A stretch of DNA of 64,000 bases from Nemertoderma westbladi (Eukaryota; Animalia; Xenacoelomorpha), in NCBI GenBank assembly GCA_032718475.1, contig JAUCBJ010004291.1, positions 12,129-76,128 of the forward strand, in the 5' to 3' direction. A program made the translations under genes and the position numbers. Positions 3,948-31,489 of the stretch are shown here, one piece after another (positions within the stretch are counted from its first letter, which is position 1; each line of letters begins with the position of its first letter). The notes under the pieces are model-generated. The model did no database searches. It was not told the DNA's origin and was given only the letters and a program-made list of their open reading frames with translations.

Positions 3948-4979
3948 ACTCGCCAGCGCTCACAACCTTTACCTCACATCACAGACTGTACAGCAAGCCT
4001 ATCCGGTTCGAAGATATTTAGCAAGATTGATCTAGTCAAGGCCTATAACCAAATCCCCGTAGCAGAGGAAGACATTCCTAAAACTGCGATAACTACACCA
4101 TTTGGTCTGTACGAGTTTGTCTGCATGCCTTTCGGGCTCCGGAATGCAGCTCAAACCTTACAGCGTTTCATCAACAATATTATTAATGATATGGATGGAG
4201 TTATAGGCCGCTCAGATGACTTACTGATCCACTCACCGGACTTAGAAGCTCACCTGTCAACATTAGACGAATTACTGAGACGTCTTGACGTACATGGACT
4301 CTGTATAAACCTCAGCAAGTGTGTCTTTGGCGTTTCTGAGATAGTTTTCCTTGGATATACTATTGATGCTCAAGGAATACAACCACCACTGGAGAAAATT
4401 GAAGCCCTTAGAGATTACCCGGCACCACAGTCAAAATCAGCACTTAGACGATTTCTTGGAATGTGTAATTATTATTCACGTTTCGTGTCGCGATACCAAG
4501 TTATTGCTTCCCCCCTCACTGATTTATTGCAGGATAAAAACTCTGATTTTACATGGTCAAGGGAAGCTGATGAAGCCTTTAACTCATTAAAGAATGCACT
4601 TATTAATGCTACTAAGCTGCGCCACCCTACATTTGATAAAGATGCATCTGTTAAAATATCATTAACCACACTAAATACGGATGCTTCCAATAAAGCAGTC
4701 GGCGCTGTTCTTCACCAATGTTCAGAAACTGGCGATATTGAACCACAACCACTGGCGTTTTTCTCCAAGAAATTGAAACCCAATGAACAACGTTATGGAG
4801 CATATGATCGTGAATTACTAGCGATAATGTTAGCGATTAAACATTTTAAGCATAAACTAGAGGGCACTGACTTTGTGGTATATACTGACCAAAAACCGGT
4901 GACCCAGACGACCGAGTACAATTCTGCTGTACTGCCCTGTTATAATAAATCTTTATATATAAATAAATTTGTAATTTGA
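3936..4979 (+). CDS. pol: Gypsy reverse transcriptase (C-terminal part) and partial RNase H; chimeric start and end
   Basis: FSKIDLVKAYNQIP, KTAITTPFGLYEF, MPFGLRNAAQT, FLGY, LRRFLGMCNYY, TDASNKAVGAVL, YDRELLAI, YTDQKP. The YxDD box reads GRSDD. The ATG comes from the upstream inverted repeat. Confidence 0.9.
   Translation: MFVTTRQRSQPLPHITDCTASLSGSKIFSKIDLVKAYNQIPVAEEDIPKTAITTPFGLYEFVCMPFGLRNAAQTLQRFINNIINDMDGVIGRSDDLLIHSPDLEAHLSTLDELLRRLDVHGLCINLSKCVFGVSEIVFLGYTIDAQGIQPPLEKIEALRDYPAPQSKSALRRFLGMCNYYSRFVSRYQVIASPLTDLLQDKNSDFTWSREADEAFNSLKNALINATKLRHPTFDKDASVKISLTTLNTDASNKAVGAVLHQCSETGDIEPQPLAFFSKKLKPNEQRYGAYDRELLAIMLAIKHFKHKLEGTDFVVYTDQKPVTQTTEYNSAVLPCYNKSLYINKFVI
4898..4910 (+). promoter_or_regulatory. 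Primer-binding-site remnant, tRNA-Trp-like
   Basis: ggtgacccagacg resembles (T)GGTGACCCCGACG, the complement of the tRNA-Trp 3' end, with 1 mismatch. It lies ~170 bp upstream of gag and is fused directly to RNase H codons. Confidence 0.7.
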
Positions 4980-5071
4980 TAAATTGATTATGATTTAATT
5001 TAATTTGATTTAATAAAAACTGTTATAATAAATCTGTAATTTGCATTGCTTTAAGTTAACAAAATATTATA

Positions 5072-6013
5072 ATGACGACCACTACACCACCAACTACAAC
5101 AATAAATAAAGCTACAACAGTGACGGCGGGCAGCAGTTCGGATCCAACAGTTCTCACCAACCCAATGGCATTAGCTCGTGTTGCGATTAAACTTCCTCCT
5201 TTCTGGCCGGCAGACCCAGAGCTTTGGTTTAGCCAGGCTGAGGCCCAATTCGCGACTAACGGAATTACTACGGAGAACACGAAGTTCTATCATGTTATTT
5301 CTTCCTTGAATCCCGAGTCAGCAGCCGAGGTTCGCGATTTAATTTTGCAACCGCATCCTACAGAACCATTTTCTCATCTACGGACTGCTATGGTTCATCG
5401 ATTAGCTGCTTCCGAGACAGCGCGCCTTAAGCAGTTATTGTCAACCGAGGAACTCGGAGATAGGAAGCCCTCTCAAGTGCTACGGCACATGCAACAATTA
5501 CTGGGGACAGCTACAGTCGAACCCCAACTAATGCGAAATCTGTTTATCCAGAAGTTGCCTTCCAGTGTCCAAACTATTCTGGCTGTCTGTCCATCCACCA
5601 CGGATTTAGTCGCCCTAGCTGATATGGCTGATAAAGTCATAGAAGTGACTCAACCTGAAGTCCACGTAAACCACCTAACGACTAGTACTGGTATTTCTGG
5701 TCTGCCTCCGGCTGCGGGTCAAACGGCTGTGGAAAACTCCTCTGTTCTACAGGATCTCATAAAAACTGTTAACGAATTGCACTTGGAAGTGAACGAAATC
5801 CGCCGTGGCCGTCCAACTTACCGAGACAATCCGCGTTCGGACGACTACTCAACATCCCGGCGCACGCGTAGCCGTTCCCGTTCTGTTGGTCGGTACAATC
5901 CTCAAGGATCGCTGTGCTATTACCACTGGAGATACCGTGCTAGAGCGCAGAAGTGTACTAAACCTTGTGAATGGCAAAATCAGGACAACAACCATGGACA
6001 GTCGGAAAACTAG
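5072..6013 (+). CDS. gag: Gypsy Gag (KLPPFW type)
   Basis: KLPPFWPADPELWFSQAEAQF, LGDRKPSQ, Arg/Ser-rich tract and CYYHWRY...KCTKPC terminal motif; intact ORF. Confidence 0.92.
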   Translation: MTTTTPPTTTINKATTVTAGSSSDPTVLTNPMALARVAIKLPPFWPADPELWFSQAEAQFATNGITTENTKFYHVISSLNPESAAEVRDLILQPHPTEPFSHLRTAMVHRLAASETARLKQLLSTEELGDRKPSQVLRHMQQLLGTATVEPQLMRNLFIQKLPSSVQTILAVCPSTTDLVALADMADKVIEVTQPEVHVNHLTTSTGISGLPPAAGQTAVENSSVLQDLIKTVNELHLEVNEIRRGRPTYRDNPRSDDYSTSRRTRSRSRSVGRYNPQGSLCYYHWRYRARAQKCTKPCEWQNQDNNHGQSEN

Positions 6014-6831
6014 CAAGCCCGCCGAACAACCCGGTGAGTTCGGCGGGGAATATATCCTCCGTATTCTGCATACCCGGAACTCAGAACGGAAAAACTAGTA
6101 GTTTTCTTATTGATAGTGGGGCCCAAATTAGTGCGATTCCCCCAAACTCAACTGAACGCAAATGTCCGGATGTCAACTCAGCATTACGGGCTGCAAATGG
6201 AACCACTATCAAGACATACGGCAGACGAACTGTAACTATTTCATTTGGTAAACTGCGCCGGCGGTACAAGTGGACTTTTATTGTTGCTGATATTCGCCAA
6301 CCAATTTTGGGGGCAGATTTCCTAGGCCACGCTCAACTCTTAGTTGACTGCACTCACCACTGTATTATTGACAATATCACCAAACTGAAGGCCTTTGGGA
6401 AACCCAATGACAACTTACTTCTACTTAAACCAATGTTCTTCGAAGTGTCAGTTGATTTACCCACACCTTACAAGGAAATCATAGAGAAATATCCCAATGT
6501 TATCAAGGAGTTTAATCCTTCAAAAACCACTCCCAAACATGATGTGAAACACCATATTAAGACATCGGGTCCACCCACATTTTGCCAGCCGCGACGATTA
6601 ACGCCGAGTAAACTACAAGTAGCGAAACGCGAATTTGACAACTTGTTAGACCTCGGTATAGTCCGCACATCATCCAGCCCATGGGCTTCCCCGTTACATA
6701 TGGTCCCGAAGCAAATTCCAGGACAATGGCGGCCCTGCGGTGACTACCGCAATTTAAATCTACAAACAGTCCCAGATCGATACCCAAAACTGGCGTTTTG
6801 GGGTTTCCACGACATTTATTTAATGAAATGA
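5971..6831 (+). CDS. pol: Gypsy aspartic protease and RT N-terminus, truncated at DRYP (6785)
   Basis: FLIDSGAQIS, ILGADFL, SSSPWASPLHMVPK, WRPCGDYRNLN, TVPDRYP. Confidence 0.92.
   Translation: MAKSGQQPWTVGKLASPPNNPVSSAGNISSVFCIPGTQNGKTSSFLIDSGAQISAIPPNSTERKCPDVNSALRAANGTTIKTYGRRTVTISFGKLRRRYKWTFIVADIRQPILGADFLGHAQLLVDCTHHCIIDNITKLKAFGKPNDNLLLLKPMFFEVSVDLPTPYKEIIEKYPNVIKEFNPSKTTPKHDVKHHIKTSGPPTFCQPRRLTPSKLQVAKREFDNLLDLGIVRTSSSPWASPLHMVPKQIPGQWRPCGDYRNLNLQTVPDRYPKLAFWGFHDIYLMK
6004..6047 (+). promoter_or_regulatory. Putative -1 ribosomal frameshift signal (gag-pol)
   Basis: Slippery-like G GAA AAC just before the gag stop, followed 7 nt later by a 10-bp stem cccgccgaac/gttcggcggg. The pol frame is -1 relative to gag. 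Confidence 0.75.
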
Positions 6832-10489: not shown

Positions 10490-10768
10490 TTATTGTTTTG
10501 GTTAGAAAAAGCTGTCTCTATAACCTCCCTCAATTGGTAATAACATCGTTTATTGTTTTGGTTAGAAACACCCGTCTCTGTAACCTACTCCTTTCCCTCA
10601 ATTAGTAACAACATCGTTTATTGTTTTGGTTAAAAAAATAGTCTCTGTAACCAGCTCCTTTCCCTCAAATGGTAACATCGTTTATTGTTTTGGTTAGAAA
10701 AACCCGTCTCTGTAACCTACTCCTTTCCCTCAATTAGTAACAACATCGTTTATTGTTTTGGTTAGAAA
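10490..10768. repeat. ~63-65-bp tandem repeat, about 4.5 copies
   Basis: Unit acatcgtttattgttttggttagaaa...gtctctgtaacctactcctttccctcaattagtaa. Confidence 0.85.
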
Positions 10769-11202
10769 ACTACTACTATTAAGAACGGCATGCTGCATTG
10801 CAGCTGCATTTTTAAGAATGCTGTGCTGGCCTGTCGATAAAATTGTGCCACCACAACTCCCCTATCACCCATGACATTTGCTAGATCATCCGCATCTTCA
10901 AGGCCGGTGTCCTTTAAGATGCGTCTCAAGAAAGTCATGGGCTGTCCACCATACTTATTCACTCCATGAGGCTGCCAAAGTACAAGATTATGCACTGGCT
11001 GGTCCTCACGGCGAAAGCAATGTCCTGAAAAGCGGAGGCAACTTTGTTCTAGTGTCAAGCTTGGGGGAACCAATGAGATACCTCCAATGTTATATAGTGT
11101 TTGGTTGGAGATGTGTGCATTGTACTACCACAATGAACCCGGCGTAGCATTCTTGTGAATAGGCCATCCAGGGATTTGGTGTACTCAGCAGTTAGAGCCC
11201 AG
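10769..11202 (-). mobile_element. 5'-truncated RTE-like LINE copy 1
   Basis: LRFSGHCFRREDQPVHNLVLWQP...LKDTGL motif and (agt)n tail; highly similar to 51986-52480. Confidence 0.8.
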
Positions 11203-14037
11203 TATTTTTTAAATATTATTTAATAGATATTAACTAATTTCAAGAAATTAATATGGCACAATTCAAAATTCTAATCGATAACCTTTGATCAAACCCCGAA
11301 AAGAAATTAAACAAAAAAAAATTTCGAAAATTGGTTAAGAAATGGACGTGTAGTAGTATTATGAATGTGAAAAATACAATCCGAGATAAACGCATTTAAA
11401 GTTTAAGAACAATATATTTCAAATGTTCTCGCTATTTTCATGTACCATTTTTCATTTTTGGATTTTTTCATGTATCATTTTCATGTCCTTTTCTTTTCAC
11501 ATTGGTTATCCCCTATCTATTTTGTGATTTCTCAATGGATTTAATGAAATTTGGTTCAAATAAACCCCTACCAACTTTTAAAAACCTGTTAAAATAATTT
11601 TAGAGTGCTTGCCCAAAAACACTCCGCGCAGCACGTGAACAAATTTCATTTTGGAGTTTTGGTTTGATCGCATACTATTTCGTGATTTATTAATAAATAG
11701 TCATAGAATAATGAGACAACCTTTAAACTTTCTGAATGATATAAAAAATTTCCACATACTTTTATAATAAGTCTTCACACAGCACGTTAATTATTCGAGG
11801 AGTTCGGAAAGCCTTTTGATCAGAATGAGAAGCCTTTACGTGGAACATGAAATGTTCATGCAGCACATGAAGACTTCGCGCAGCACGTGAATTATTCTCA
11901 AAGCATGTGGAATTTAAAAAATAATAAGTTTATGGTTGATCCCCACAATTATTATTACCAGCTATTGCTATATGATGGTTCCCATTTGTTATTACTAGTA
12001 GACAAATAGTCCATTAGACAACTGTTCAATATGTAATACAAACTCACAAATATTTATTAAATATCTATTAATTATAAATTGACAGACAGACAGACAAACT
12101 GTGAGACAGATAGACTGACATACAGACATAGTGATTAGATAATTCAAAACATGAAAACAGATATCGGCATTAAGAAAAATTCCCACTGCTTTTTAATATT
12201 TCGATGGACAGACAGACAGACTTACAGACGGAAAACCAGCCATTACTCGAGAAGTAAAAGAGATAACGCTAAGCCGTTTAGAGATTTGAAATCCTCATTA
12301 AATTCTGCTCTATATGAAATAAAAAAACAAAAATATCGAAAATTTTGACCTGAGGGCGGGGGGGGGGGGGGGGTGTACCCCCCCTTAATGTGATATGTGT
12401 GATACTGTGATATGGCGCCACATTTAGCGCCAAGAAACCCTGACCAGACATGTTACTTGGCTATATAATTTTTGCTATCACTGTGTTACCTTATTTTTTT
12501 AGATTTCATTATTTTTACCGAGCTGTGCCATATTAAATATATGATTGCCACTCAACATCGATAAAAAATACTACTGATAATGGTACACCGGTAGTTACTA
12601 AGTTATAGTTACCAAGTTAATGTGCGATTGTCACGCATTGGCCTACTTATCAGTGTATAAGTGCTGCACAAAGAAAAAGATTCTCTATCCTAATCATCCC
12701 TTATAATTGGAATTGTCAAGGGCACCTGTCCCTGCTGGCAATTTTATCATGTAAGGACACATAACTTGTAAAAGCTGTAGCATTGCTGGAGAGAAACTTT
12801 CTTGCTGTGAATAAGACACTACTCTCTTTGCCTAGCAAACATTAACGATTCAACATGGATTCCCAATCAGCGTAGTACAATCACTCCAACTGATCATTAT
12901 TCTCTAAGTAACCTGAGTTGGTGTCCAGTTCATTCTCCAGATCCCCCCCCCCCCCCCCCGCACTGTATCTCATCTCACTGTATATAATAGACACATATAG
13001 TAGGTTGCTTTATTTCTCAGTAGAGCTAGGTTCATAAATACAAATCAATAAATATATCATCCATATCACATAAAAATCTAATTCACCCACTGCGCAGTTA
13101 ATGTAAGACATCCAACAACATTGCATGTAATAAAAATATATAATCTATGTTTCAGTGCTTGGAACTAGTTTCTTTACTTTGTAATAATATTAATGGATTG
13201 TACCTTGATAAGTTTTGTTAATCAATAAAATAACCTTAAACCTTCTCAAGGAATGTGATCAGTCTCCCCTGGTGATTTAATGTCTGCTGGTGTTTTCACA
13301 TATTTAATGTTAACATTTTCATCTGTTTGATAATAAAGCAGGAAATTACCATCACTACCACTTGTTATATATTGTGTAAATTCAGTGAAATGGAATTAAG
13401 ATTAATTAAGTTGAATGGAATGTTGTAGTTAACATATTTTTTAAAAATGCCAGCAGATAACGCTTAGTATCCTATTACCATCACATGTCATGGAAAAAGT
13501 AAGGTGAATTATTTAGTTAGAAAAAAGTAAAACGATTTGTGATTGTGTAATACTAATCAGTGGAGGCATTGAAAATAATCCTCTGGGTGGCATTTATCTC
13601 TCTTTCAAAAAAGTAACACATAATGCGACCTTTTGACCAAGAATTACATGCAAAGAACCTCACCCAAAACAAAGAAAAAAGTAGAATAAAGTGTTTGGTT
13701 CGTCAACAATGTTTTGTTTGGGTGGATTATTATTTCGAATCCCAAGGGAGGGAAACTAACAGGATAGAAAAACTGTCGGTGGTCCCAGAGGAAGGTGGTG
13801 CTAGACTATTTAAGATTACAAGAATACATGACAGAGATGCGCCGTGGCTAGTACTTTTAAAGCGTTAGTAAAGGAATCAATACCACAAACTCTAATCACC
13901 TGAGATGATAATTTTAGGATGAACGCACTGAGTATTGTACTCTTTCTCTTTCATTAGATATAAGTAAAAGGAAACACAATATGACAGATGGTCTATAGGT
14001 TATTATGGTTGATGTTAGGGTTTGTTAGTCAGACACG

Positions 14038-14913: not shown

Positions 14914-16612
14914 TATATATATACTATATATATATATACTATAGTTTGCATTTAATCTCTAGATATTATTATATCATATGCTACAACACAACTCTAACTC
15001 TATTTTTAAGGTGAAGGTTTATTTTATATTTTTATGTGTTACAATAATATGATTTGTGTGTATGTTGTCTATGTTTCCATGACGCCTACACAATGAGGCT
15101 TATTATATTAGATTTATATATATATATATAGAGTACCTACCTATCTACTATATACATTGTTTATTTGGTGTATTTGTTATTGTTTTACATAATGTATAAA
15201 TAAATCAACATCTACAACTCATATATATGATTTATACTGTCGGTATATTATGGTAATTAACAGTTCTTTACAACTTACCCGCATCAAATGCCATACAGAT
15301 ACTCGTTACACTAAGTATAAGAAGCATGGACATTAATAATGTGTGGATCAACATGTTGTTTTAATTATATTCTTCAATGTTGATAATTTATTTGCTTAAA
15401 GAATATAGGTCAAATTATAGAATGAAATAATATAGTGTGATGTCTAAAAAATAATTTTATGTTAAATTTGTAGCGAAAAAAGAGTATTATTATGGAAAGT
15501 TATACTAAAGAAGATTCATACATTTCTGCCATTTATGATGATGAATATACAAAATAGAAATAATCATGGCACAATAGAAAGAATATTCTTTTTGTGAGCA
15601 GCGTATTGGATAAAACAGGTAGACAGAATGCATCCCATTGGTGTTTTGCGATTTGTGCTGACAGTAAGTGGGGTAAGATTGTGTGCCAACAGTGCGAGAG
15701 TTCAAGGTTCTAAATTAATCGAAAACTAAGATCACTTACAACCACTACTGCTCAATCGAATCCCTATTGAACAATTCCCTAAGGTTTTTAAACACGAAAT
15801 CTTACTAATTCACGAATATTTGAGAAGTAATGGCTGTTGTAGGTTCTCTGAATGCTCCTGAACAGTTGGAAATCTCTTCATATGGCAATATTAAAAGTAA
15901 GTTTCTGGAGTTTTTAATCTGTTTATATAAGATTTCAGTTTTCAATTAGAGATGTTATTCAGTAATTCACGAATATTCTCCCCTAAGAATTTTAGGACAT
16001 GATTTAATAATATTCAGTAGATTAAATGAAACACTCAAAATTAAGATTGGTCAAACTGACAGAAAATATTCAATTTGACCAGATATACAGATTGACAACA
16101 ACATATGGTCGGATGGGGTGGTTCTACAATTACTGATTGTGCTCATTACATAATAAATAATTATGCTGGTCGTATTAAATGTAGCATGTGTCTCTGGAAA
16201 AAATTTAATACATTAACTAAATAAATTAAAACCTAAGTGAAATGAAATTATTTTTTCTTAAATTGTTACGTTTTCGCTAGAAAATACCCCAAAATCGGGA
16301 GAAATTGGTACTTTTTTTTTAACTCGGGGAAATAAGTATTGCTTTAATTATATTTTTTCGTGGCGAAGAAAGTTATGTAAGAAAACGAAAAATTTTTTTT
16401 GGTGGAATTTCTTCAATTTAAAAATTTACAGAATGCCACAGAGGTTAAAGATGAGTTGAGATAACATTGAAAAAAATGTTTTTCCACGTGTAATACGTAA
16501 TTTTATTCTTAAATTAGTATATTTTGTTTTGTTGCTTGTATTTTTCAACATTGTTTCTACAGTTATAGTAGTGTAGTCAAATTAGGCCGAAAAATACAAT
16601 GGGCTCCATAGC

Positions 16613-17819
16613 TGTAAAAGCTTTTGCTGAATTGCCCGGTTATTTTTCCTTATTTTTCCCGTAAAATACTCTGTAGTTGGTTTAATAGGCGTAAGAGGCC
16701 GTATTATTGCTGTATCGGTGTTTTTAGAGGATCTAAGAGCTATTTCTTCCGTATGTGTACTGTGGAAGGCATAGTTGATGATTCTATGGCAATTCCATGA
16801 CGCAAAAGGGGATAGCTACTCTTGAACAGTAGTTACTATGACGACGGTTAACAGCTGATATTCATACATGTCGATTTTCTTTGTTCTACGGCATCTCTCA
16901 GTTCAGTCAACCAATCAGAGCGTTTTTACTGTTCTTGTACAGAAATTTCCTAGAAATCACGCAATGCTGTATGGGCTGTGTTATCATTCTGTCCTGAGCC
17001 AGGAAGAGCGGCTTTGGAATATTTTGTGCTTTTCTGCTTTAGCCTAACACTAGTAGGCTTAATTATAAGGACATATATCCGTTATCTCAACTCACACTTA
17101 ATATCACACTGGTTATCACTGGTTAACTGGCCCATACTGTGCAACTTAACTTAACATTACTGCTTTGCTGTCGGTTATTCATTATATTTGTTGATGAATT
17201 ATTATATTTGGAATAACGAGAAATAACCCCGAAACCCAATATTCTTGATATACCGAAGGTAAGAGAGAAAGGTTACATATAACGATTGTGACTTATGTTA
17301 AAGTGGTTTGAAGTGAATCTAATGTTATTTGATAGACCCTACATGATTCGGTCCGTGTTCCTTTTATATGTGACTAAAATCAGTGAAGATCGGCAGATCA
17401 GTGTGCAGTATTGTGCAGCATTGTGTATGAGTGAGACTGATAACGAAGCATTTCCTAAAGAATGCGCCATATATGTGAATTGTAACTAAGCCATATCGTT
17501 GCGTGTAGTTTAAGTCATAACTCTGTTTATAGATAGAGCGCCACGTCCTAAAGGAACTGTTAATATTCCCCGAAAGTGAATAATATTGTCAGAGATTATA
17601 TAATACTGTCAGTCGAATAATACATTAGGCTTACATAGCAATACGATTAAGCCGTCGAACCCAATCTCCCGGGTATATCCAGCGGGTGAATGATCGCGCA
17701 CCGATTGGTTTCGACTAGTGTAGTGAATCAAATACTTGTCAGAGGCTAAAAGTGATTTATTATCTAGAAGACATCCTAATTTGGCGGGTTAAACTGCCAA
17801 AGGTCTGAAAGCGCGAACA
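16613..17819 (+). repeat. 5' LTR
   Basis: tgtaaaagc...gcgcgaaca; I counted only 3 substitutions against the 3' LTR by eye. Confidence 0.97.
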
Positions 17820-17831
17820 ATAACGGATATA
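17820..17831 (+). promoter_or_regulatory. Putative non-tRNA (self-complementary) primer-binding site
   Basis: ataacggatata abuts the LTR, lacks TGG, and is the exact reverse complement of tatatccgttat at 17074-17085 and 28127-28138. Confidence 0.65.
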
Positions 17832-17886
17832 GCTTCTTTATTGCAGTAAGCAATAAAGTTGAAAGTACCGGTTGACCGGTAAACCT

Positions 17887-18050
17887 GAACCGGTACTTCT
17901 GTAGGTCAGTAGGCCCAACTGCCAGAACCGGTACTTCTGTAGGTCAGTAGGCCCAACTGCCAGAACCGGTACTGCTGTAGGTCCGTAGGTCCAACTGCCA
18001 GAACCGGTACTTCTGTAGGTCCGTAGGCCCAACTGTCCTAACCGGTACTT
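17887..18050. repeat. 38-bp tandem repeat in the Bel/Pao leader, ~4.3 copies
   Basis: gaaccggtacttctgtaggtcagtaggcccaactgcca starting at 17887, 17925, 17963 and 18001. Confidence 0.9.
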
Positions 18051-18229
18051 CCAGTATAAGTACATTAGTATTATTCGAATTTGATAGTTATATACCGGTA
18101 GGTCTTAGTACTTAATCAGGGAACGGCCGCCCTGGTTTTTTATTGAGATTTTACTTGTTTCTGTCGGTTTTATTTGTTTGTAGGCCAGTATTGAACAGAA
18201 GGCGTGTAAGCCTGATCATATTGTACAGA

Positions 18230-18800
18230 CAATTTGTAGGCTGGGCTGTTGTCTGATTGCTATTAAGTCTGAACGGATTGCAGTGTGTGTAGATCACCTG
18301 TCCGATAAAGAACGGTTAGGAAGTAGGGGCAGCCAAAGCTGTAAGGTAAACCCCCATCTAAAGAATAAGTCGTACTACTGGGTTAGAACGCATACTACCT
18401 AATCATTTCGGAGTCTGCATGTCCTGTAGTTTATTTAGGCTTGAGAGTAGTCTGCCATCGTTTAGTCTGTACTTTGTTTGTGTAGTCTGTACAGGTAGCG
18501 TATAATATTTATTTAGATAATTTGTAGGCTGGATAGTTGTCTGGCTGTTATTAGGTCTGAACGGATTGCAGTGTGTGTAGAGCCTCTGTCCGATAAAGAA
18601 CGGTTAGGAAGTAGGGGCAGCCAAAGCTGTAAGGTAAACCCCCAACTAAAGAATAAGTCGTGCTACTGGGTTAGAACGCATACTACCTAATCATTTCGGA
18701 GTCTGCATGTCCTGTAGTTTATTTAGGCTTGATAGTAGTCTGTCAGTATTTGGTCTGCATTTCGTTTGAGTGGTTTGTACGCGTAGCGTAATATTTATTA
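18230..18800. repeat. 288-bp tandem duplication in the Bel/Pao leader with a conserved, self-complementary core
   Basis: tccgataaagaacgg occurs at 18301 and 18589; the core is nearly identical and the flanks are more diverged. Confidence 0.88.
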
Positions 18801-20131
18801 TTCAGAGTTTATGCGATTATTCGCAACATTCATTCCCCAAGTTTGTTCCTACAATAATTGTGTTTGTTATACATACCGCTATAGTTAAATTAACCCCGGT
18901 ACTACACGGGCTGCTTGGCGTAGGTAAAGACTGGTGATTTTGTGCACCGGTGACTCCAGCAGATGCCGTGGTTCTTTTAGCTGTTCAAGTATATTTAACT
19001 ACTGATTATATGTTGTACAAGTACTCGTACCTAATTTAGGGTTTAGTGTACAGTGCTTTCCGAAAGTAATTAGTGTAGGCATTATATTTGTGTTGTAAAG
19101 TGGTTGATAGGCACGTTCGATTAGCTCTATTAACTTCTAGGTAGGGACACTCCGTGATACATAACGTAGTACCTATAGCGATACGGCTATAGGTCGTCAG
19201 GCGGTGGTATTTTCCTATCTGGACAACGCAGTGTATTTACTACTACGTATTATTTTCAAATACCGCAGTACCCTGTCCGTTGTAATAACCAGATTTCTAA
19301 CCCTTTGTTAGGCTGGTTTGTAGACTTCTTGTAAAATTACCCTAAAAATTCGTATTTTGTGTTTTTTGTAAATTTTTGTGTTTATTTAGAGATTGTAATC
19401 TCAACCCGAATCGTACGTAATTTGTAGTATTAAGTAACTTAGGTAAATTAGAATTATTTGTTTTAGTGTCCTATAAGTAACACTTCACTGAAAGCGCACC
19501 GCTTTGTGTAGTGATTACTCCCCAGAAATAATAACATTTATTTCAAACATTGACAAAACCCATTAAAACGGGTATATATATTATAAATCAACTCAAACGA
19601 TTTATAAATAGTAGGCCTGCCATACAACAATTAGGTCTCAATATCAGTTGGACTACTGCTTAAATAACGGTAATAAAGTAAGTTAAAGTAACCAAGTAAC
19701 CCTTAAAATTCAGAAATTCAATTATTCTAAAATAATTGACATACCGGTATTTACAATAGGCTTATTATATTTATTTCTATAAATCTTAGGTTGAAATCAT
19801 ACCGGTATTCTGTAATTAATTTTAGTTAATAATTATACTTATATATACTATAAGTGTAAACTGCATACCGGTATCCACGATAGGCCTATTATATATTTAT
19901 ATATATTTTTGTGCTAAAATTATATACCGGTATTTTGTGAAAAAACCTAGTCTGTAATAATACTTCTATATACCATAAGCATACCGGTATTCTAATATAT
20001 TATATATATATCACGCTACACTGAGTAGCAGTATCGGTAATTAATTACTAGGCTAGCAGTTAATGCTGAATTACTAGACTTGCTTAGACTGTAATATAGC
20101 AGTAGGCATTCAACTGTACAATCAAACAAAC

Positions 20132-23100
20132 ATGTCTGACACAAAACAAACATTGTCAGATAGCCTCTTAGAAAGTGCTAGAATGAGTGTTAGACAGGGT
20201 CTTAAAAAGATCTGGGACTCAGCTAAGAGTATAGAGCGTCTAAGACCAAAGTCCAAGTCCCCTCCTACTGTAAGCAAGGTCATCCCTACAGTAGTAATAA
20301 CAGAACCGAGGCTGGTCCAACATCGTAGGTCTATCATAGGCACTCGAGCTCAGGTCAAGCGAGACCAAGAAGCAGCGGAACAGCAACAACCCGCGAGCCA
20401 AGAACTTATTTCTCAGCGGTCCGACAGCTCCAGTAGTTCGGATACTGTTGAGCGGACGCCCGAACGCGGAGCGAAGATGGCGGATACGGTTTATGATGAA
20501 CGGCCAACCTATGAAGAATCAACCGACGCCACTTTTTCTCAAGAAGAAAGCGAAGCGACAGCAGAGAAACCGCATAAGAGGGATGCCATTGACATCTATC
20601 TGTCAGACTATCAACGTTTTTTAGGTGATGACGAGTTGAGGAGAAGGTTAGATGGACTTAGCCCTAATAGCGAAGGAACTCAGCGTGTGTTGGATGCCAT
20701 CGATGTGGAAATGAGGGCTGCGAATCAGGCTAAATTCGATGAACAACTCCGCATCACTAGAGAACAAGAAGAACAAGTAAGGAAAAAACGTATAGAAGAC
20801 AGGAAGATAGCAGCAGTGGCAGAGGCAGAAAGAAAAGCGACCTTGGCAGAAGCAGCGGCAGAGGCAAAAGCGGCAGCAGCAGAAGCAGAGGCAAAGGCAA
20901 AAGCGGCAGCAGCAGAAGCAGAGGCAAAGGCAAAAGCGGCAGCGGCAGAGGCAAAAGCGGCAGCGGCAGAGGCAAAAGCGGCAGCGGTGGCGGAAGCAGA
21001 ACGGAGAGCGGCTGAAGAGATCGCCCAACTGGAGTTGGAAAATCTTCAAGAGAAGCAAGACGACTTCAGTAAACAGTTAACAGCTAGTAATATGCAGATG
21101 ATGAATCGATCTACTCCCAAAAGACAGGGATATACATCATCTGAAGAAGGCGATACCACCGATACTGAAGGCAAAGGAAATAGATCTCGTCTAAGCAGAC
21201 GTAAAAGAACACTCCACCGTCAGAAATTGCCTGATTTGCCTCCAGCTGTTAGAAGGCAACTAAATAACACCAACTTAGGCAGTACAGAACCCACAGACCA
21301 AATAATTAAAATAGAAAGACTCCCTACTATAGTAGATGAGCCTGAAATAATTAGGCCTGTTTTTGAAATCACCCCTTCGGTGATAGACACACCTGTGCTC
21401 CCTGAAGCTACCTCTAAATTCCCTCTGCATAGCACTAAGCTTCCTGTGCCCAGTAGAACTGCCCAGGAGACAGTTCAGGTCCTGGACCCCGAGCGAAATA
21501 TTCCTAATTTGTCGCCCGTTGTCCCTCGTCCACCCGCTACAACGTTGGCGACTCCCGCTTCGGCGGTCGAATGGGTGGACGAGAGACGGCGGGGGATGGA
21601 TCTCCTGCTCGGGCAGATGCAGGAGACGGTTCAGCAATTCAAAGGCACAATAAGGGAAAGTAGACTAGAGTTGCAAGAAGTGCAGCAAAGTATCGCGCTA
21701 GAACGCGATAAATTAGTGAACACACAAAAGGGTATACCACCACCCCCTGTAACAATGTGTCAACCCGTTAGGTCTGAAGTATCTCATGCGCAAGGTGTGG
21801 AGCCTACACGCATCTATACTGCTAGCGAAGTAGAAACTCCTATAGTGAACCCTATTAAGGGTAATTATAGATCTGTAGATAATGATATTCCCTATAGACC
21901 AGATCATAATCCGAGAAATTTATATACCGATAACTCGATATTAAATAACACGATGGCCCAAGAAAGTTTTACGCGTCAAATGGCTAGAACCGAAGCCCGG
22001 CAAGCGGTGAAGATGGGAGAGATCGTCAAGTTCAATGGAGATGAGATGAAATGGTTACCTTTTAATGAATATTACAAAGATAACATACAGAACTCTGTAC
22101 TATCTAATGGAGAGAAACTTAGATTCCTCATCGAGTGCTTGGAAGGATCTCCCAAGTTAATGGCGTTAAGGTTTATTGGACATCCAGACGGATTAAGACA
22201 AGTTTGGGATACACTAAACATCAGGTATGGTAATAGGAATAACATAGCTGGGTATTTGTATGCAAAGTTGGTAGCGCCCCGAAAGTTTATTAGCAGCGGG
22301 ATTATAGAGTTTTCCGATGAAATTCAGGAGATCTGCAGACAATTAGATTGGCTAGGTAAGTCTCATGAGTATCAGAGTGCTATGGTTATTAGAGCAGTGG
22401 CTTCTACTTTACCGAAGGGTGGAGTAGGTACACGCTGGGATAAGAAAGTGTTATATATGATGGAACAACAACGACGAGACCCTACCATGGCTGATCTCAT
22501 GTCATTCTTAGATGGAGAAGTGAAATTACAGCTCCTAAGGCAGTCCAGAGAGAAGACACTGGAAAACAAGGTAAGTGAGAAACCCGTTTCTCGGAGAAGG
22601 GTAACACCAGTGTGTTATACAGACGACGGCGAAAGCCAGACTTCTCAAGGAGAGGATAGCGGGAAAGACACTGAAAGATCTTATGTCAATAAAACGCCTA
22701 AAGACCAGGTAAGTAAATTCAAGTCTCGAACCAATGACAGGAGAGAAAAGGTAAGAAAAACTCCTCCTACGTCTCCCAAGAGAATTCAGGTGAGAAAGCC
22801 CGAGGAAAGAACGAACGTGCACCACACAGCACATGTTAAAGTAAGTAACATCAAGCCCAAATGTGTGCTGTGCGACGGGCCCCACCGTTTAAATGCGTGT
22901 GATAAATTCTTAAAGAAATCATTAAAAGAGAGACGGGAAGTCATGTGGGATAAGCGGTTGTGTTATAATTGCCTCAGACGAGGACACCAACGGCGAACCT
23001 GTTACTCCGACGCAAGGTGTGCAAAGTGCGGTGCGAAACATCATATCTTGTTGCACACTGAATTCGAGCGAAATAGTCCGAGTCAGGTGAGTGATTCCGA

Positions 23101-24601
23101 ACTACATGTCCAATTCAGTGATGTGAACGACACTGATCAATCTGAGATGGAAGGATTCTATACGGACGAATTCTCCGACCAAAACGAATCCTGTTACTTA
23201 ATAAACACCACCGCAGTGTATCGAGCACTCATGTATGAGAAAGACACAGACAGCGACCTCACCCTAACTACTTCAGATCAACAACAATCTTGGAAAGCGC
23301 CAACTTCAAATGTAGGAATCCGAGAATTTCCTGTAGTCCAGTTACGGGTCCACAGACCTCAGAAGAGCTATATAGTGAACGCCCTCCTGGACTCCGGTAG
23401 CACAGGAACATTCATCGATAAAGAACTAGCCGAAGTCATCTTTGCTGGACAACCCAAGTTCCGAACCAAGCTAAACATGTCAGGGATCATGCAGGTTTGG
23501 AATTCTACTGTAGCTGCCGACTATTATATAGGTGAGTTGTCCACTCCACAGGATAAACTAGGAGAATACAGTATAAGGTCAGTAAAAATGGTGGCAATAA
23601 AGAACTTCGCTACCACCCAAGTTGAACCTTATAATTGGGACGAAGATGATCATGTCCAACAACTTAACATCCCTAGATTCGACACCGATTATCCTGGAGT
23701 ACAAATATTAATCAGTCAAAACGCGCATGAGGCGCTGGAGACATTAGAGAAACGACCTACTCAACCGCAACCACTTCAGACCTATGCGGTAAGAACTAGA
23801 GTAGGTTGGTACCTTACTGGACCTTCCCGTAGAACGCTCAGGGAAAGACTGCTTCAAGATCGCGTCTGCCAGGTGAGTGAATGGGAAGACGATACTAGTG
23901 AGGGAGACGACCCAACTGAGGGAACACCACACTCCTCAGATAATGACAATCTTAACTCCAATGTAGATCAATGGAGATATTGCCCCAAGACGATGAATAT
24001 AGCCGACATCGCTTCCAGAGGAGCAACTCCTCAAGAACTGACAGATACTCCAGACCGGCTAGGTGAACCCGACTTCCTGAGTAAGGAGGATGAATGGCCT
24101 CCCCATCTTACTCCGACTGAGATTAGACCAGCCAAGGGAGCGGAGAAAGTCAAACCTAAAACCCGGATGGGTGGATCGGAGTTATTTGAACCCGGGATAG
24201 ATGTGTCGGTATTACATATTGCCAGGGACGACGCCGTGGATCTGGACCTCCCCACCGCGAGTGGATCCTTCATGAAGATCAGAGAGAGCGATTGGAGCTC
24301 TCGAACATCAGACGTCTCGCAGGGACTCTCACCTCTCCTGCAGGGAGCGACGGACCGCTATAGCTCCTGGAATCGGCTTTGTAAGGCCGTCGTGTACCTA
24401 GAGCGATGTTTCTATCGTCACTATTCCAGGACGAAGAGGAAACCTGGAATTGTATTCGGGATGCAGCGACTCAATCACCCAGTCGGTCGTTTGTGTTTAC
24501 CGGAAGGGAATGGAGGACTCTCCGGAAACTGTGGAAGGCAAGATTCTCTTCCCACGACCACCTCCCTAATCCTTCAAACATCTAGGGACTCCATAACGTA
24601 A
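20132..24601 (+). CDS. gag: Bel/Pao Gag-protease polyprotein with in-frame relics of the RNase H end and integrase C-terminus; no RT or IN core
   Basis: KFNGDEMKW...EKLRFLIECLEG (DUF1759-like), three Cys/His knuckles (CVLCDGPH..C, CYNCLRRGH..C, CAKCGAKHH..LH), ALLDSGST protease, YAVRTRVGWYLTG, QWRYCP..NIADIASRG, RYSSWNRL, HPVGRLCL. The likely start is the ATG at 20152 (MSDTKQ). Confidence 0.9.
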   Translation: MSDTKQTLSDSLLESARMSVRQGLKKIWDSAKSIERLRPKSKSPPTVSKVIPTVVITEPRLVQHRRSIIGTRAQVKRDQEAAEQQQPASQELISQRSDSSSSSDTVERTPERGAKMADTVYDERPTYEESTDATFSQEESEATAEKPHKRDAIDIYLSDYQRFLGDDELRRRLDGLSPNSEGTQRVLDAIDVEMRAANQAKFDEQLRITREQEEQVRKKRIEDRKIAAVAEAERKATLAEAAAEAKAAAAEAEAKAKAAAAEAEAKAKAAAAEAKAAAAEAKAAAVAEAERRAAEEIAQLELENLQEKQDDFSKQLTASNMQMMNRSTPKRQGYTSSEEGDTTDTEGKGNRSRLSRRKRTLHRQKLPDLPPAVRRQLNNTNLGSTEPTDQIIKIERLPTIVDEPEIIRPVFEITPSVIDTPVLPEATSKFPLHSTKLPVPSRTAQETVQVLDPERNIPNLSPVVPRPPATTLATPASAVEWVDERRRGMDLLLGQMQETVQQFKGTIRESRLELQEVQQSIALERDKLVNTQKGIPPPPVTMCQPVRSEVSHAQGVEPTRIYTASEVETPIVNPIKGNYRSVDNDIPYRPDHNPRNLYTDNSILNNTMAQESFTRQMARTEARQAVKMGEIVKFNGDEMKWLPFNEYYKDNIQNSVLSNGEKLRFLIECLEGSPKLMALRFIGHPDGLRQVWDTLNIRYGNRNNIAGYLYAKLVAPRKFISSGIIEFSDEIQEICRQLDWLGKSHEYQSAMVIRAVASTLPKGGVGTRWDKKVLYMMEQQRRDPTMADLMSFLDGEVKLQLLRQSREKTLENKVSEKPVSRRRVTPVCYTDDGESQTSQGEDSGKDTERSYVNKTPKDQVSKFKSRTNDRREKVRKTPPTSPKRIQVRKPEERTNVHHTAHVKVSNIKPKCVLCDGPHRLNACDKFLKKSLKERREVMWDKRLCYNCLRRGHQRRTCYSDARCAKCGAKHHILLHTEFERNSPSQVSDSELHVQFSDVNDTDQSEMEGFYTDEFSDQNESCYLINTTAVYRALMYEKDTDSDLTLTTSDQQQSWKAPTSNVGIREFPVVQLRVHRPQKSYIVNALLDSGSTGTFIDKELAEVIFAGQPKFRTKLNMSGIMQVWNSTVAADYYIGELSTPQDKLGEYSIRSVKMVAIKNFATTQVEPYNWDEDDHVQQLNIPRFDTDYPGVQILISQNAHEALETLEKRPTQPQPLQTYAVRTRVGWYLTGPSRRTLRERLLQDRVCQVSEWEDDTSEGDDPTEGTPHSSDNDNLNSNVDQWRYCPKTMNIADIASRGATPQELTDTPDRLGEPDFLSKEDEWPPHLTPTEIRPAKGAEKVKPKTRMGGSELFEPGIDVSVLHIARDDAVDLDLPTASGSFMKIRESDWSSRTSDVSQGLSPLLQGATDRYSSWNRLCKAVVYLERCFYRHYSRTKRKPGIVFGMQRLNHPVGRLCLPEGNGGLSGNCGRQDSLPTTTSLILQTSRDSIT

Positions 24602-26249
24602 CAACATATGGAGTGGGTGTGTGACTCTATTATTTTGTATTTGTTTTATTTTTATGTTTATGTATGTATTATTATGTAATTTTATTTTAATCGTTTTATT
24701 TAATTTTATTTAGTAGTATGGTATTTTAGAGATTATTTAGTAGATTAGTGCAATATATATTCGCGTTTATTATTTAATTACGTATATTATATATTTAGTG
24801 CGATGGCGAGAAATAATTCTTTTTCTCTTTCCTTACTGTCCGTATTATATTATAAATACGTAACTACAGTAAGATGAAATGTCCGTACTTATTAAAGTAC
24901 AATAAAGCCACTACTATATTTAAGTATTATTGGTAGGCAGAGTATTAGGAATGCAAAGTTCAGATCCTCGTGTCTCGGCTAAACCAAGCTCTGGGTAGAC
25001 CTTGGAAACGACTTGCCTCTTCACACTGACATTGCTTCGTGCGATATTGCTCTCATACCGTATATTAAATAATACATATAGTAGCGTGATGTCCCTTTAA
25101 CAGTAGCGTATAACGCAAAATAAATCTGTTAAACCCTTTGACCATCTGTAATTCTAGTCGATTAAGATATCGCGGCACCCACCGATATACTTGAAAGACA
25201 AATTCTAGAATCAGTGGTTAACGTCCCCAGACAAGTTATGGAATAAATCGGTGCCCATCTCAAATATTAATTATTTAATATTTGCAAATCTAATAAATCA
25301 AAATCTGTAAAATTCAGATCCTTCAACAATTCTAGTCAATTAAGATATCGTAGCATTTACCGATATTCTTAAAAAGACAATTGTCATAGAATTAAGGATC
25401 TTGTGTCCCCAGACATGTTCTAGAATCAAAATATGTCAATTTAATTATCAAATAATAAAATTTCAGGGAATAAATTTAAATTCATGCCTTTTAATGAATT
25501 TAATAAATTGCCATTTTTACGCAATTTATAACATTCCCAAAATTCCATTAATTAATAGATCAAGGGAGCGGAGATTTATCTTATTATGCGTATGAGTGTG
25601 CGAAAGTCTCCCAAACATAGTCAATAGCCGATAAAATTCATAAAGTCATGTATAAAACAGGACATTGACCATTAAAGAATTACTATTAAATAACATCCCA
25701 GATCTGTATGCATTGGAATTACCCTAATTCTACCGCTAGCTTTGCATAATGTCACCATAGCAACAACCACGCTAGAATTAGAATTGAGTTAAAAGAACAA
25801 TAGAAAGCTTGTCCCATTGAATAGCATAGGGAATAAATAGCGCACTGCTAGTATCCAAGGATACATAATAATACAGTGACATTCTGGAAGGCATTGACTA
25901 ACGGACAAATGGCCCGAGTGTGTGTAATTTGTGACAAGTTGTGTGTGTGGTATTTGTGAGTTTATAGGCGAATGTTACTACTAAGGTGTGTTTACAGTAG
26001 CTAGTCGCAATTGTGAAAGTAACCCTAACTCTCCAGTAAGAACCTGAGGTGTATCTAAGCCTTTGGGACGGACAGTCGAGTGACTTGTGCCGGTTGTCGT
26101 TGTCGTTGTGCGGCTACGTCGTTGGCGAAAGTACAGCGGCGACGACACATCGGCGCTGAGGATCTCGCACTGTCCGGGGGCTGATTGGGGTAGGCAGCGA
26201 CGCTCGCTAGCCTAAATATAAACTCGTTATAATATTAATAAACTCATAT

Positions 26250-27600
26250 ATAGCAGATATGACGGAGTTGATAGAAGATGGTCTTGGTATCAGGGAGCGA
26301 TATACTCTACTTTCAAGCGTTTGTTGATAGCTTGATACGCGGTGATACTAGTCCAACTACTACGAAGGATGATGGTCGTTATATCGAACCTACGATTTCC
26401 TGGAAGTAACTTACGCGTGAATTGGACTATGGAAAATTCACCGCTCGCTACACGCATTGTAATGGTATGTATATGGACTTCTTAACCATTGGCCATTCTA
26501 TCGATTTACACGATACGGACTATGTCGAACATATCCTACCCAGAGGAGTCGAAACGATAAACCAAAATTCTAATGCGAAAATCCTATTCGAAATCGACTC
26601 GAAAGAAAAGACATTAAAGAAACAAATAAACGCGGAAACTCCAACATACATTTGGAATTCTTGATAGAAGCATTGTAACAACAAATAAATATCACCCGCG
26701 TTTCTCCTTCAAGATGTGCGTCTTTGGTATTATTACGATAAATGCCCTAGACCCAGCCAATAAACGGAAAGACATAAACATCCACGGAAACGTTGTGTTA
26801 AACACAGTTGTGTTCGTTATATTTACTGGAGTTTCGAGCGAAACTTGTTTGACGTATCACCTATGCTCACTCGGCTCGAACGATCCTGGAGTAAACCTAC
26901 GATCAGAGTCCCGGAATACTCAGTCAAACCTCCTCATTCCTTAGTTGGACCTCAGACCTGCGATCCTGGTAGTGTCACGGATCCTCGCGGACTGTATTCA
27001 CTGTTCAAAGATCTAGTGCTACCCTAACAATTAATCGGTAACACTCCGACAGTGATTTCTAGCTAGCCGCCCATCTTACCTAGCCGGATTGTGACGCGGA
27101 CACCTAATATCACTATCCAACCGTATGGTCGTCCCCGTTTAACGCGATACAACCCTTCATCAAGGTGAAGGAGAGCGTTGTACGAAACGAGTTAAACGTT
27201 ATTCTATAAAGATCAAAAAAGAAATCTGCGTTTGTTCAGATAAACGTAAGTTATAACAGTAAGTCCAATCGATAAACGAATTAGCCTTATCTCAGTTCGA
27301 TTGGGAAATCTCGAATCTCTAAGAAGATATCAAGCTTAGAAAACCCTATTCTCTGCGAGAGTTTTGGACGAACGTATCCCATGACAAGCGGAGGAAAATC
27401 AGCTCGAGGAGAAGCATATCGAACTGGATGAGACACCGACCGTAAACCCAAACCTTCTAATGCAATTGTATTGCACCCTTTACCCAGGAGTTGTAGCCTT
27501 CCTAGTAAAGTGGCTCGCCCCAAAGAGAAAAGGACTCTGGCTAGCCTCGGGAAACTGCGTAAACGCCGTCCGCGCAAAGAAAACTAACTGTTTAGAGTAT
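26250..27600 (+). pseudogene. Decayed extra ORF of unknown identity at the env position of the Bel/Pao element
   Basis: Chain of short plus-strand ORFs (26422-26664, 26714-27027, 27460-27717) with coding-like composition between the polyprotein and the PPT; no recognised motif. Confidence 0.35.
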
Positions 27601-27656
27601 CTTTATGTTTTAGAAACTGTGATTTTTATATTTTATAGACTGAAAATCCCATTTTC

Positions 27657-27665
27657 TGGGAGCGG
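27657..27665 (+). promoter_or_regulatory. Short polypurine tract
   Basis: gggagcgg directly before the TG of the 3' LTR. Confidence 0.6.
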
Positions 27666-28872
27666 TGTAAAAGCTTTTGCTGAATTGCCCGGTTATTTTT
27701 CCTTATTTTTCCCGTAAAATACTCTGTAGTTGGTTTAATAGGCGTAAGAGGCCGTATTATTGCTGTATCGGTGTTTTTAGAGGATCTAAGAGCTATTTCT
27801 TCCGTATGTGTACTGTGGAAGGCATAGTTGATGATTCTATGGCAATTCCGTGACGCAAAAGGGGATAGCTACTCTTGAACAGTAGTTACTATGACGACGG
27901 TTAACAGCTGATATTCATACGTGTCGATTTTCTTTGTTCTACGGCATCTCTCAGTTCAGTCAACCAATCAGAGCGTTTTTACTGTTCTTGTACAGAAATT
28001 TCCTAGAAATCACGCAATGCTGTATGGGCTGTGTTATCATTCTGTCCTGAGCCAGGAAGAGCGGCTTTGGAATATTTTGTGCTTTTCTGCTTTAGCCTAA
28101 CACTAGTAGGCTTAATTATAAGGACATATATCCGTTATCTCAACTCACACTTAATATCACACTGGTTATCACTGGTTAACTGGCCCATACTGTGCAACTT
28201 AACTTAACATTACTGCTTTGCTGTCGGTTATTCATTATATTTGTTGATGAATTATTATATTTGGAATAACGAGAAATAACCCCGAAACCCAATATTCTTG
28301 ATATACCGAAGGTAAGAGAGAAAGGTTACATATAACGATTGTGACTTATGTTAAAGTGGTTTGAAGTGAATCTAATGTTATTTGATAGACCCTACATGAT
28401 TCGGTCCGTGTTCCTTTTATATGTGACTAAAATCAGTGAAGATCGGCAGATCAGTGTGCAGTATTGTGCAGCATTGTGTATGAGTGAGACTGATAACGAA
28501 GCATTTCCTAAAGAATGCGCCATATATGTGAATTGTAACTAAGCCATATCGTTGCGTGTAGTTTAAGTCATAACTCTGTTTATAGATAGAGCGCCACGTC
28601 CTAAAGGAACTGTTAATATTCCCCGAAAGTGAATAATATTGTCAGAGATTATATAATACTGTCAGTCGAATAATACATTAGGCTTACATAGCAATACGAT
28701 TAAGCCGTCGAACCCAATCTCCCGGGTATATCCAGCGGGTGAATGATCGCGCATCGATTGGTTTCGACTAGTGTAGTGAATCAAATACTTGTCAGAGGCT
28801 AAAAGTGATTTATTATCTAGAAGACATCCTAATTTGGCGGGTTAAACTGCCAAAGGTCTGAAAGCGCGAACA
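27666..28872 (+). repeat. 3' LTR
   Basis: 1207-bp direct repeat of 16613-17819, followed by the TSD atagc. Confidence 0.97.
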
Positions 28873-29717
28873 ATAGCCAAACCCGGATGGAAACACAATA
28901 TGGCTAAATTTGGTATCAATCGATGTAGAATTTCTTGTAGAATAATATTATCATGTACCTCCAGTGCCTCACCTAGATTAATTTTTTAAATCACTATGAA
29001 CACAGGTTGGTCATCGCTCGATGATAAGTGGAATTGAGTTTTAAGCACTTTTTAAATGTAATTACGTCAGCTAGTTCACGGGGTTGTTTTAAAGGTACGA
29101 ACTAAAATACTGAACCAGCTGAAACCACCTGAAACCAGCAGTAAACCACCTTGAAACCAGCTGTGAAAACCAATCATATTCGTTTATAAGGGAACTTAAG
29201 CTCTCGGCTGGTAACCAGGGGTGTACCTTAGATCCTAGACACGAACTTAGATCCTGGGCTCTATCTAGTTGTGAGACTTGGGATCTTAGACACAGTCTTA
29301 GTTCCTTGGTGTGATATTACTGATCGACCTTAGATCCTAGATGCGAACTTAGATCCTGGGTGTGGCCTTAGATCCTAAATGCAAATTTAGATCCTAAATG
29401 CGAATTTAGATCCTGGGTGCGATCTACTGGTGCGACCTTGATTGTTGGGTAAAATTTTCGCATTTTTGGTTTTCTATTTCATCTGATGTAGAATTTAATT
29501 GGGAGTTCAAATCTTGGAACGGTTTGGTGAGATCTTTTTTAGTTCTCGAGTTATCGGTGTCTTTCCATAAAAGTATCAGTTTATAGTGTATCAGTTTGTC
29601 CATAAAAATTTAGAAGACAGACAGACAGACAGACATATTAGATACAACCAAACATTAAAGAACATACAGCTGTACAGACAGATACTATTCCTGTATTCCA
29701 GAGATGCTAGACAGTAC

Positions 29718-29773
29718 GGGTAAATCTTTTCGACCTAAGCATAGGCCTACGCGTAGGTCGAAAAGATTTACCC
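29718..29773. mobile_element. 56-bp minimal MITE
   Basis: TIRs gggtaaatcttttcgaccta / taggtcgaaaagatttaccc; perfect 8-bp TSD gacagtac (29710-29717, 29774-29781). Confidence 0.85.
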
Positions 29774-31325: not shown

Positions 31326-31489
31326 GAAAAATTCGTGACCCAGTTAATCAATAGGCCTAACTGAGATAGTGAGTACCAGTAGTATATATCTGTATATACC
31401 AGTATACTGGTACTGCAGTACTAATATAAGGTTCTATTAGGCCTACCATTGCAGTTCATTTTTCAGCTGTAGTTCCCGATTAAAACTGT

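Follow-up and report, generated by a model that had tools for sequence, protein, structure and literature searches.

The retrotransposon Tf1 of Schizosaccharomyces pombe primes reverse transcription with the first 11 nt of its own RNA after an RNase H cut (PMC7175516), inside a pretzel of three duplexes (bioRxiv 10.1101/2022.12.06.519325; PMC4600332), and, in plants, TAR copia and Tcn1 elements have been predicted to self-prime under a criterion of at least 10 bp of complementarity lying 0-5 bp from the end of the long terminal repeat (LTR) (PMC6317226). For Bel/Pao elements, the ICTV, the international committee for virus taxonomy, describes replication as poorly understood and tRNA-primed, with an 18-nt primer-binding site (PBS) for tRNA-Arg or tRNA-Gly (PMC8742986). 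Here we describe a Bel/Pao-type element in a stretch of 64,000 nucleotides of Nemertoderma westbladi DNA (contig JAUCBJ010004291.1, positions 12,129 to 76,128, forward strand; hereafter the window), the PBS position of which is exactly complementary to a segment of its own LTR. Judging from the comparisons below, the element is likely to start reverse transcription from a fragment cut out of its own RNA, with enzymes presumably supplied by an autonomous partner, and self-priming in some form appears highly probable.

Tf1/Tf2, Tj1, Tosmo and the Tf1/sushi elements likewise carry a PBS directly behind the 5′ LTR, with 11-12 nt complementary to their own LTR and no tRNA site (PMC7175516; PMC4600332; bioRxiv 10.1101/2022.12.06.519325). 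However, Tf1/sushi elements are Ty3/gypsy chromoviruses whereas the proteins of the present element are of the Bel/Pao type, so it is no member of that group and at most works alike; in addition, the Tf1 primer is the 5′ end of the RNA and a U5 duplex is formed, whereas here no such duplex was found and the primer of the relatives would mostly be formed across an intron. For the TAR elements (Houba, Osr-1) of Ty1/copia and for Tcn1, self-priming was inferred by the same criterion and an origin outside Tf1/sushi had already been proposed, but these are copia or chromovirus elements of plant hosts and the accessible text mentions no splice-built primer (PMC6317226). With Belpaoviridae (Semotivirus) the element shares an LTR of up to 1.2 kb, a DUF1759 Gag, three zinc knuckles, a protease and a polypurine tract (PPT), but it has neither the 18-nt tRNA PBS of the ICTV description nor a reverse transcriptase (RT) or integrase (PMC8742986). 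A non-tRNA pairing element also takes the place of the PBS in those fungal GalEa copia elements that have a Conserved Hairpin Site; it is a local hairpin for which the authors, in the accessible text, found no LTR complement, whereas here the partner lies 735 nt upstream within the LTR (PMC5445492).

The initial annotation of this DNA, which was made from the sequence alone, named no Bel/Pao precedent for self-priming, and none was found in a search of the open-access literature. A term search of the accessible text of three Bel/Pao papers (PMC554778, PMC3118150 and PMC6238403) returned no passage on tRNA or priming sites, "primer" in PMC554778 referring to the polymerase chain reaction, and the accessible portions of PMC5445492, PMC2864245, PMC3286476, PMC5443660 and PMC13524379 contain no case of Bel/Pao self-priming. 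Bel/Pao was not modelled in an LTR survey (PMC3601003), and four 8-nt terms were absent, as a weak test, from the seven supplements of PMC13524379, which include a table of tRNA 3′-end PBS types. The wider priming signature described below is apparently undescribed to date. A Bel/Pao family of Caenorhabditis elegans is said to carry its own tRNA-like primer.

Exact complementarity between the PBS position and the LTR

The 12 nt at 17820-17831 are the exact reverse complement of 17074-17085 within the LTR (3′ copy at 28127-28138) and have a single occurrence in the window, and the nearest TGG downstream of the 5′ LTR lies at 18133, in agreement with the flush, TGG-free complement pointed out in the initial annotation. 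With 12 bp at offset 0, the pairing falls within the published range for self-primers. In dinucleotide shuffles of the LTR, a flush complement of at least 12 nt arose in 5 of 20000 cases (p about 0.00025), or in 14 of 20000 when offsets of 0-5 were admitted (p about 0.0007), and none of 9828 internal positions of the element has a 12-nt complement in the LTR. A search of 16500-20200 against Rfam gave no family match beyond one at E 0.94. The 12-mer also bears a possible likeness to a donor motif of the minor spliceosome.

The U5 hairpin noticed previously does exist, but it provides no evidence for priming because the fold of the last 50 nt of the LTR is ordinary (z -1.5) and is not shared, with only 1 of 20 non-tRNA relatives below z -3. 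Pairing of 17868-17880, 36 nt from the PBS, with 17118-17130 gave a shuffle fraction of 0.006 in one of two tests, both stretches being near-palindromic. A U5 duplex of the kind found in the Tf1 pretzel was not above chance (shuffle fraction 0.26). A longer duplex reaching 17044 was considered and rejected, since its fractions were 0.05-0.14 and its leader part favours its own hairpin.

Self-complementarity in Bel/Pao relatives

Relatives were gathered with an alignment of 12 full-length matches, giving 79 metagenome loci and 24 loci from prokaryote assemblies. To these was added one locus on a viral contig, which lacks a 5′ end and came from the second of two viral-contig searches, the first of which gave none. 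Both LTR and leader were recoverable at 37 of the 104 loci, and the other 67 were dropped for lack of these. When LTR ends were found by score, a spurious boundary appeared within the L083 LTR and the top match was wrong for L060, L072, L087 and others; the headline count was therefore limited to 14 of the 37 loci, in which the LTR end was fixed by aligning the two LTR copies rather than by score. One rule was applied to all 14, with the TGG type defined by a TGG at most 7 nt from the LTR.

Four of the 14 loci have a TGG-type PBS and a self-complement of just 4-6 nt. All ten non-TGG loci are complementary to their own LTR over 11-15 nt, seven across a GT-AG splice junction and three contiguously. 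The donors at the seven junctions are GTAAGT, GTGAGT or GTAAGA, the acceptor is YAG, and exon 2 contributes 5-8 nt of the junction complement in relatives with fixed ends. Pairing begins 0-4 nt from the LTR edge in 9 of these 10 loci and at 8 nt in one degenerate copy. As controls, a complement of at least 11 nt was obtained in 1 of 210 cross pairs and in 3 of 600 shuffled leaders. Among the 23 loci whose ends were inferred, 15 are of the junction type (two from the same family), 5 are contiguous and 3 were assigned to neither type; these ends were picked by score or by eye, several with relaxed rules, and hence carry lower weight.

The complementarity is specific to each family. In a cross matrix of 25 rows, at least 10 nt were complementary in 21 of 21 non-TGG rows, window element included, and in 4 of 600 off-diagonal cells, two of which are sister families sharing one PBS. 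In the sister families L082 and L085, the exon end and the PBS differ in concert. Family-specific complementarity of this kind is the comparative evidence that the initial annotation had asked for, and together with the PBS variant described below it supports tRNA-independent self-priming. The further suggestion of that annotation that self-priming might be a peculiarity of this lineage did not hold, as the signature spans a large Bel/Pao group, in which self-priming is likely to be widespread. Nor is the Tf1 geometry, with the first 11 nt as primer, indicated, because pairing in relatives occurs for the most part across a splice junction that lies 125-381 nt inside the LTR.

Of the two LTR copies of L047 (L047:1-345 and L047:6694-7103), which are just 88% alike, one carries the intron-less joined form, and in the other an intron ends at an AG ahead of the shared part. 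The presence of both forms within one family shows, in DNA, that such a junction can arise and become fixed, with the proviso that the contig may be chimeric or recombinant.

Two other features of the collected loci were recorded. The junction-type element at L099:7166-7870 has LTR ends of TATT...TAAA instead of TG...CA, and up to 24 Bel/Pao-like coding loci (L081-L104) lie inside prokaryote records, namely metagenome-assembled genomes and a Wolbachia chromosome, where they are most likely host animal DNA in the assemblies.

A variant PBS that fits a predicted splice junction

Related LTR pieces, about 92-95% alike, were found in the contigs of one public sequencing run (X1; share 0.15, kind uncertain). 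An X1 contig at a depth of 16.6 of 22.3 carries two differences inside the PBS, 17820 A>T and 17824 C>A, and the window's own PBS letters were seen at about 5.7 of the 22.3 depth, so that this PBS form is not confined to the present copy. The variant PBS has a contiguous complement of just 5 nt in the LTR of the window, but joining 17080 to 17509, with the GT of the 12-mer as donor and AG 17507-08 as acceptor, gives 12 of 12 pairs, flush with the LTR edge. The 7+5 split agrees with the relatives. Among two-letter variants of the PBS, 2 of 594 (the X1 variant included) fit any GT-YAG junction at 12/12 and 4 of 594 fit any AG; restricted to changes in the first five PBS letters, the fit is 1 of 90.

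The PBS of the window itself matches no junction with a canonical donor, its match being contiguous, and no splice junction beats the contiguous 12 nt (best 11). Each primer form pairs over 10 of 12 positions with the PBS of the other. In retroviruses, the plus-strand PBS is copied from whichever primer was used, and a PBS could therefore switch between spliced and unspliced forms in a single step. The distance from the site to the LTR end is 739 nt in this copy vs 106-229 nt in four contiguous relatives. By its predicted sites, this copy is a third arrangement, in which the long intervening stretch is kept and the PBS would pair with the unspliced exon-intron boundary at a weak GT. A 26-nt pattern from the 17038-17087 block gave 0 matches in metagenome contigs.

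Phylogenetic placement

A quick tree built from 39 rows of RT-RNase H contains a group of 30 rows (Shimodaira-Hasegawa-like approximate likelihood-ratio test, SH-aLRT, 97) that consists of 27 self-complementary loci and the 3 assigned to neither type, whereas the 4 TGG loci, 4 insect-type references and the junction locus L071 fall outside. Contiguous loci are interspersed with junction loci, a scatter that would fit repeated intron loss. L071 and the TGG-type locus L022 are sisters in both this tree and the Gag-protease tree. Their place beyond the main self-complementary group hints that the signature was gained more than once, or lost.

A proposed priming pathway

In the pathway that we consider most likely, transcription would start upstream of 17074, placing the site inside the repeated region R, and the 5′ part of the RNA would fold onto the PBS. 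A cut at the end of the duplex, after 17085, may follow, much as RNase H cuts Tf1 RNA, and the resulting 3′-OH would prime copying from 17819 back to 17086. For self-priming, it would suffice that the RNA starts at 17074 or further upstream and that its poly(A) site lies below the cut. As the element has no RT or integrase, any priming would rely on the enzymes of a partner.

In most of the group, the primer would arise only once the intron of the 5′ LTR is spliced out; the intron would persist through the 3′ LTR copy, and occasional splicing of that copy would yield intron-less LTRs. In the present copy, the unspliced boundary at the weak donor would serve as the primer, making it splicing-independent. 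For the branch as a whole, the case for and against is evenly balanced that tRNA-free Bel/Pao elements build their primer by splicing an intron of their own LTR, with repeated exits via intron loss or re-templating of the PBS; on that branch-wide reading, replication would be tied to the host spliceosome and the family of this element would hold both PBS states side by side.

Two motifs at 16898-16908 that resemble initiators, and the 17038-17087 block, which begins like an acceptor, point to an upstream start. The primer is probably internal to R, unlike the first 11 nt of Tf1. RNAs folded from 17040 or from 17073-75 formed the helix with a pair probability of 0.84-1.0.

Several observations weigh against the proposed pathway. 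The helix probability is just 0.08 for a start at 16900 and 0.27 for one at 17055; since folding favours some starts and disfavours others, it leaves the start site undecided. TATAAGG with CTCACA 30 nt below it points to a start near 17094, which would place the 12-mer in U3. Scored with a rough matrix, the donor at 17081 takes rank 73 of 83, with a far better one at 17259, and 311 nt separate the acceptor from the LTR end vs 52-248 nt in 13 relatives. X1 contigs, which are possibly DNA, contain no GT-AG joint and span the best predicted intron, 17259..17335, ungapped. The X1 variant could match its own, unseen LTR or be neutral decay, and letters 17830-31 of its contig are perhaps not listable. 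The quick Gag-protease tree puts the element outside the self-complementary group, on a branch of 2.34 among long branches, although its placement inside the group was not rejected by the approximately unbiased (AU) test (p 0.19). The position of junction-type L071 outside that group counts on the same side.

Alternative explanations

The best surviving alternative, which we nevertheless consider improbable, is strict Tf1-type priming, with the RNA starting at 17073-17075 and its first 11-13 nt cut off as the primer. Such starts lie among those at which the helix folds with a probability of 0.84-1.0, an 11-mer from 17075 would equal the Tf1 primer in length (PMC7175516), and pairing appears to stop at 17074 given the insignificant upstream extension (0.05-0.14). 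However, no TATA lies 25-32 nt upstream, the sole TATAA being 10 nt above 17074; the X1 block preserves 36 nt upstream of the 12-mer, from the acceptor-like AG; the paired stretch of L047 lies about 90 nt below its TATA and initiator-like motifs; and the U5 duplex of the Tf1 pretzel was not found.

A start near 17094 would follow if TATAAGG, the motif reported in the initial annotation and present as described at 17064-17070, were the true promoter; the 12-mer would then lie in U3, as that annotation already considered, and the primer would be supplied by the copy in the 3′ LTR, on the same RNA or on one packaged with it. TATAA at 17064, CTCACA at 17091-96 and GGTTA 28 nt further on match the spacing of TATA, initiator and downstream promoter element (DPE). 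This is nonetheless very unlikely: cutting behind that copy would cost the RNA the 3′ R required for strand transfer, barring a second RNA; a diverged X1 record leaves the window sequence right after 17087, so CTCACA is not kept; and a TATA-like motif at most 50 nt above the site occurs in only 2 of 18 relatives.

It is about as unlikely that the pairing is real but structural, for example in splice-site masking, dimerisation, packaging or translation, with priming by another RNA or at another site. The duplex does cover the donor-like GT, and the conserved hairpin at the PBS position of fungal GalEa copia elements has no known role according to the accessible text (PMC5445492). A primer site, on the other hand, would lie as close to the LTR edge as the pairing does in 9 of the 10 non-TGG relatives and would be missing, as the pairing is, from the four TGG-site loci.

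Least probable is a chance match in this copy, or a host primer such as a tRNA fragment, for although the element is one of many LTR elements scanned, half-tRNA primers without TGG exist in copia lineages (PMC6317226) and the placement of the element in trees is ambiguous (outside in the quick tree, AU p 0.19), the shuffles (p about 0.00025-0.0007), the independent fit of the X1 variant (2-4 of 594), the group-wide pattern and the Rfam search all speak against it.

Architecture of the element and other features of the window

Coordinates are collected in Table 1.

Table 1 Features of the element and its LTRs (positions in the window).
Feature	Position	Strand	Remarks
Target site duplication, left	16608..16612	+	ATAGC
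5′ LTR	16613..17819	+	1207 nt, TG...CA, 3 mismatches to 3′ LTR
Two initiator-like motifs	16898..16908	+	TCAGTT, TCAGTC; candidate start upstream of the primer
Conserved 50-nt block	17038..17087	+	48/50 in X1 contig with non-aligning flanks; putative acceptor-like start TTTAG (17038-42); ends 7 nt past GT 17081
TATA-like motif	17064..17070	+	TATAAGG; initiator-like CTCACA at 17091-96, 30 nt below
Candidate self-primer	17074..17085	+	12/12 complementary to PBS; contains very weak donor-like GT at 17081-82
Predicted short intron	17259..17335	+	top-scoring donor of the LTR, branch-like CTAAT, TAG acceptor
Acceptor-like AG and next five letters	17507..17513	+	AG at 17507-08; joined to 17074-80, complement of X1 PBS variant
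U5 hairpin	17781..17800	+	7 bp including one G-U; 17781-87 pairs with 17794-800
PBS position	17820..17831	+	no TGG; flush with LTR end
Leader hairpin	17836..17858	+	9 bp, right behind PBS
Leader stretch pairing with 17118-17130	17868..17880	+	13 bp including G-U; faintly suggests a second duplex
Single open reading frame (ORF)	20132..24601	+	1489 aa; Gag, aspartic protease, scrap of region behind RNase H
PPT position	27658..27665	+	short purine-rich tract ahead of 3′ LTR
3′ LTR	27666..28872	+	1207 nt, TG...CA; second 12-mer copy at 28127-28138
Target site duplication, right	28873..28877	+	ATAGC

The element spans 16613 to 28872 and is flanked on each side by a 5-bp duplication, so the near-identical LTRs and intact duplication of the initial annotation stand. 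Its single ORF contains DUF1759 (PF03564, E 2e-10) at aa 634-761, three zinc knuckles at aa 911-975 and the aspartic protease motif DSG at aa 1087, followed by about 50 residues from the region behind RNase H (feature listed at aa 1281-1297). No RT or integrase match was found in the ORF, in which the protease passes straight to this scrap. All four matches of one protein search are Bel/Pao polyproteins with both PF03564 and PF05380, and every close match with a Pfam domain or a recognisable polyprotein is Bel/Pao; these relatives are distant, with best identities of just 25-38% among the 150 representatives listed.

The Bel/Pao assignment proposed initially is therefore upheld by the LTR ends, duplication and PPT, by the Gag type and by protease homology, with the addition that RT, RNase H and integrase in the order PR-RT-RH-IN (protease, RT, RNase H, integrase) are absent, as is an 18-nt PBS matching the 3′ end of a host tRNA. 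The element is a young non-autonomous Bel/Pao derivative carrying a deletion and not a complete family member.

Outside these domains, the long N-terminal part of Gag includes an alanine/glutamate/lysine repeat (EAKAAAA-like, 20790-21020), and the 2.3-kb leader contains tandem repeats of 38-42 nt, a duplicated stretch of 287 nt (90%) and repeats of a looser kind (17884-18051, 18227-18799 and 19740-20011). Between the ORF and the PPT lie 3 kb without a recognised gene (24602-27657), which may hold the decayed remains of an additional one. No Pfam match was obtained for the short ORF scraps in this stretch (26410-27024 and 27385-27663), and 26410-26661 was uninterpretable.

Elsewhere in the window, permuted Gypsy-like pieces occupy 3912-6831, with RT-RNase H (3912-4979) ahead of a DUF7041 Gag and protease (5060-6831), and an array of about 330 copies of a 24-nt unit covers 35479-43700, with several frames open for more than 2000 codons. 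Long inverted repeats with arms of 59-174 nt (29093-33219, 33639-34964 and 61782-62619) resemble DNA transposons of the foldback or miniature inverted-repeat transposable element (MITE) type, and the pair at 33639-34964 encloses an ORF with weak matches to a Tc1-type helix-turn-helix. ORF scraps like those of non-LTR retrotransposons are found at 10762-11205, 51987-52497 and 44797-45498, two of them 91% alike.

Implications

If the proposed pathway is right, the RNA attached to strong-stop DNA is predicted to be LTR-derived and to end 4-8 nt into exon 2. The complementarity also offers a simple rule for many Bel/Pao elements in which annotation detects no PBS. Elements primed in this way would be beyond the reach of host silencing by tRNA fragments aimed at the PBS. 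If splicing makes the primer, reverse transcription would be started in a new way that couples replication to RNA processing, and self-priming would then be present in all three superfamilies of LTR retrotransposons.
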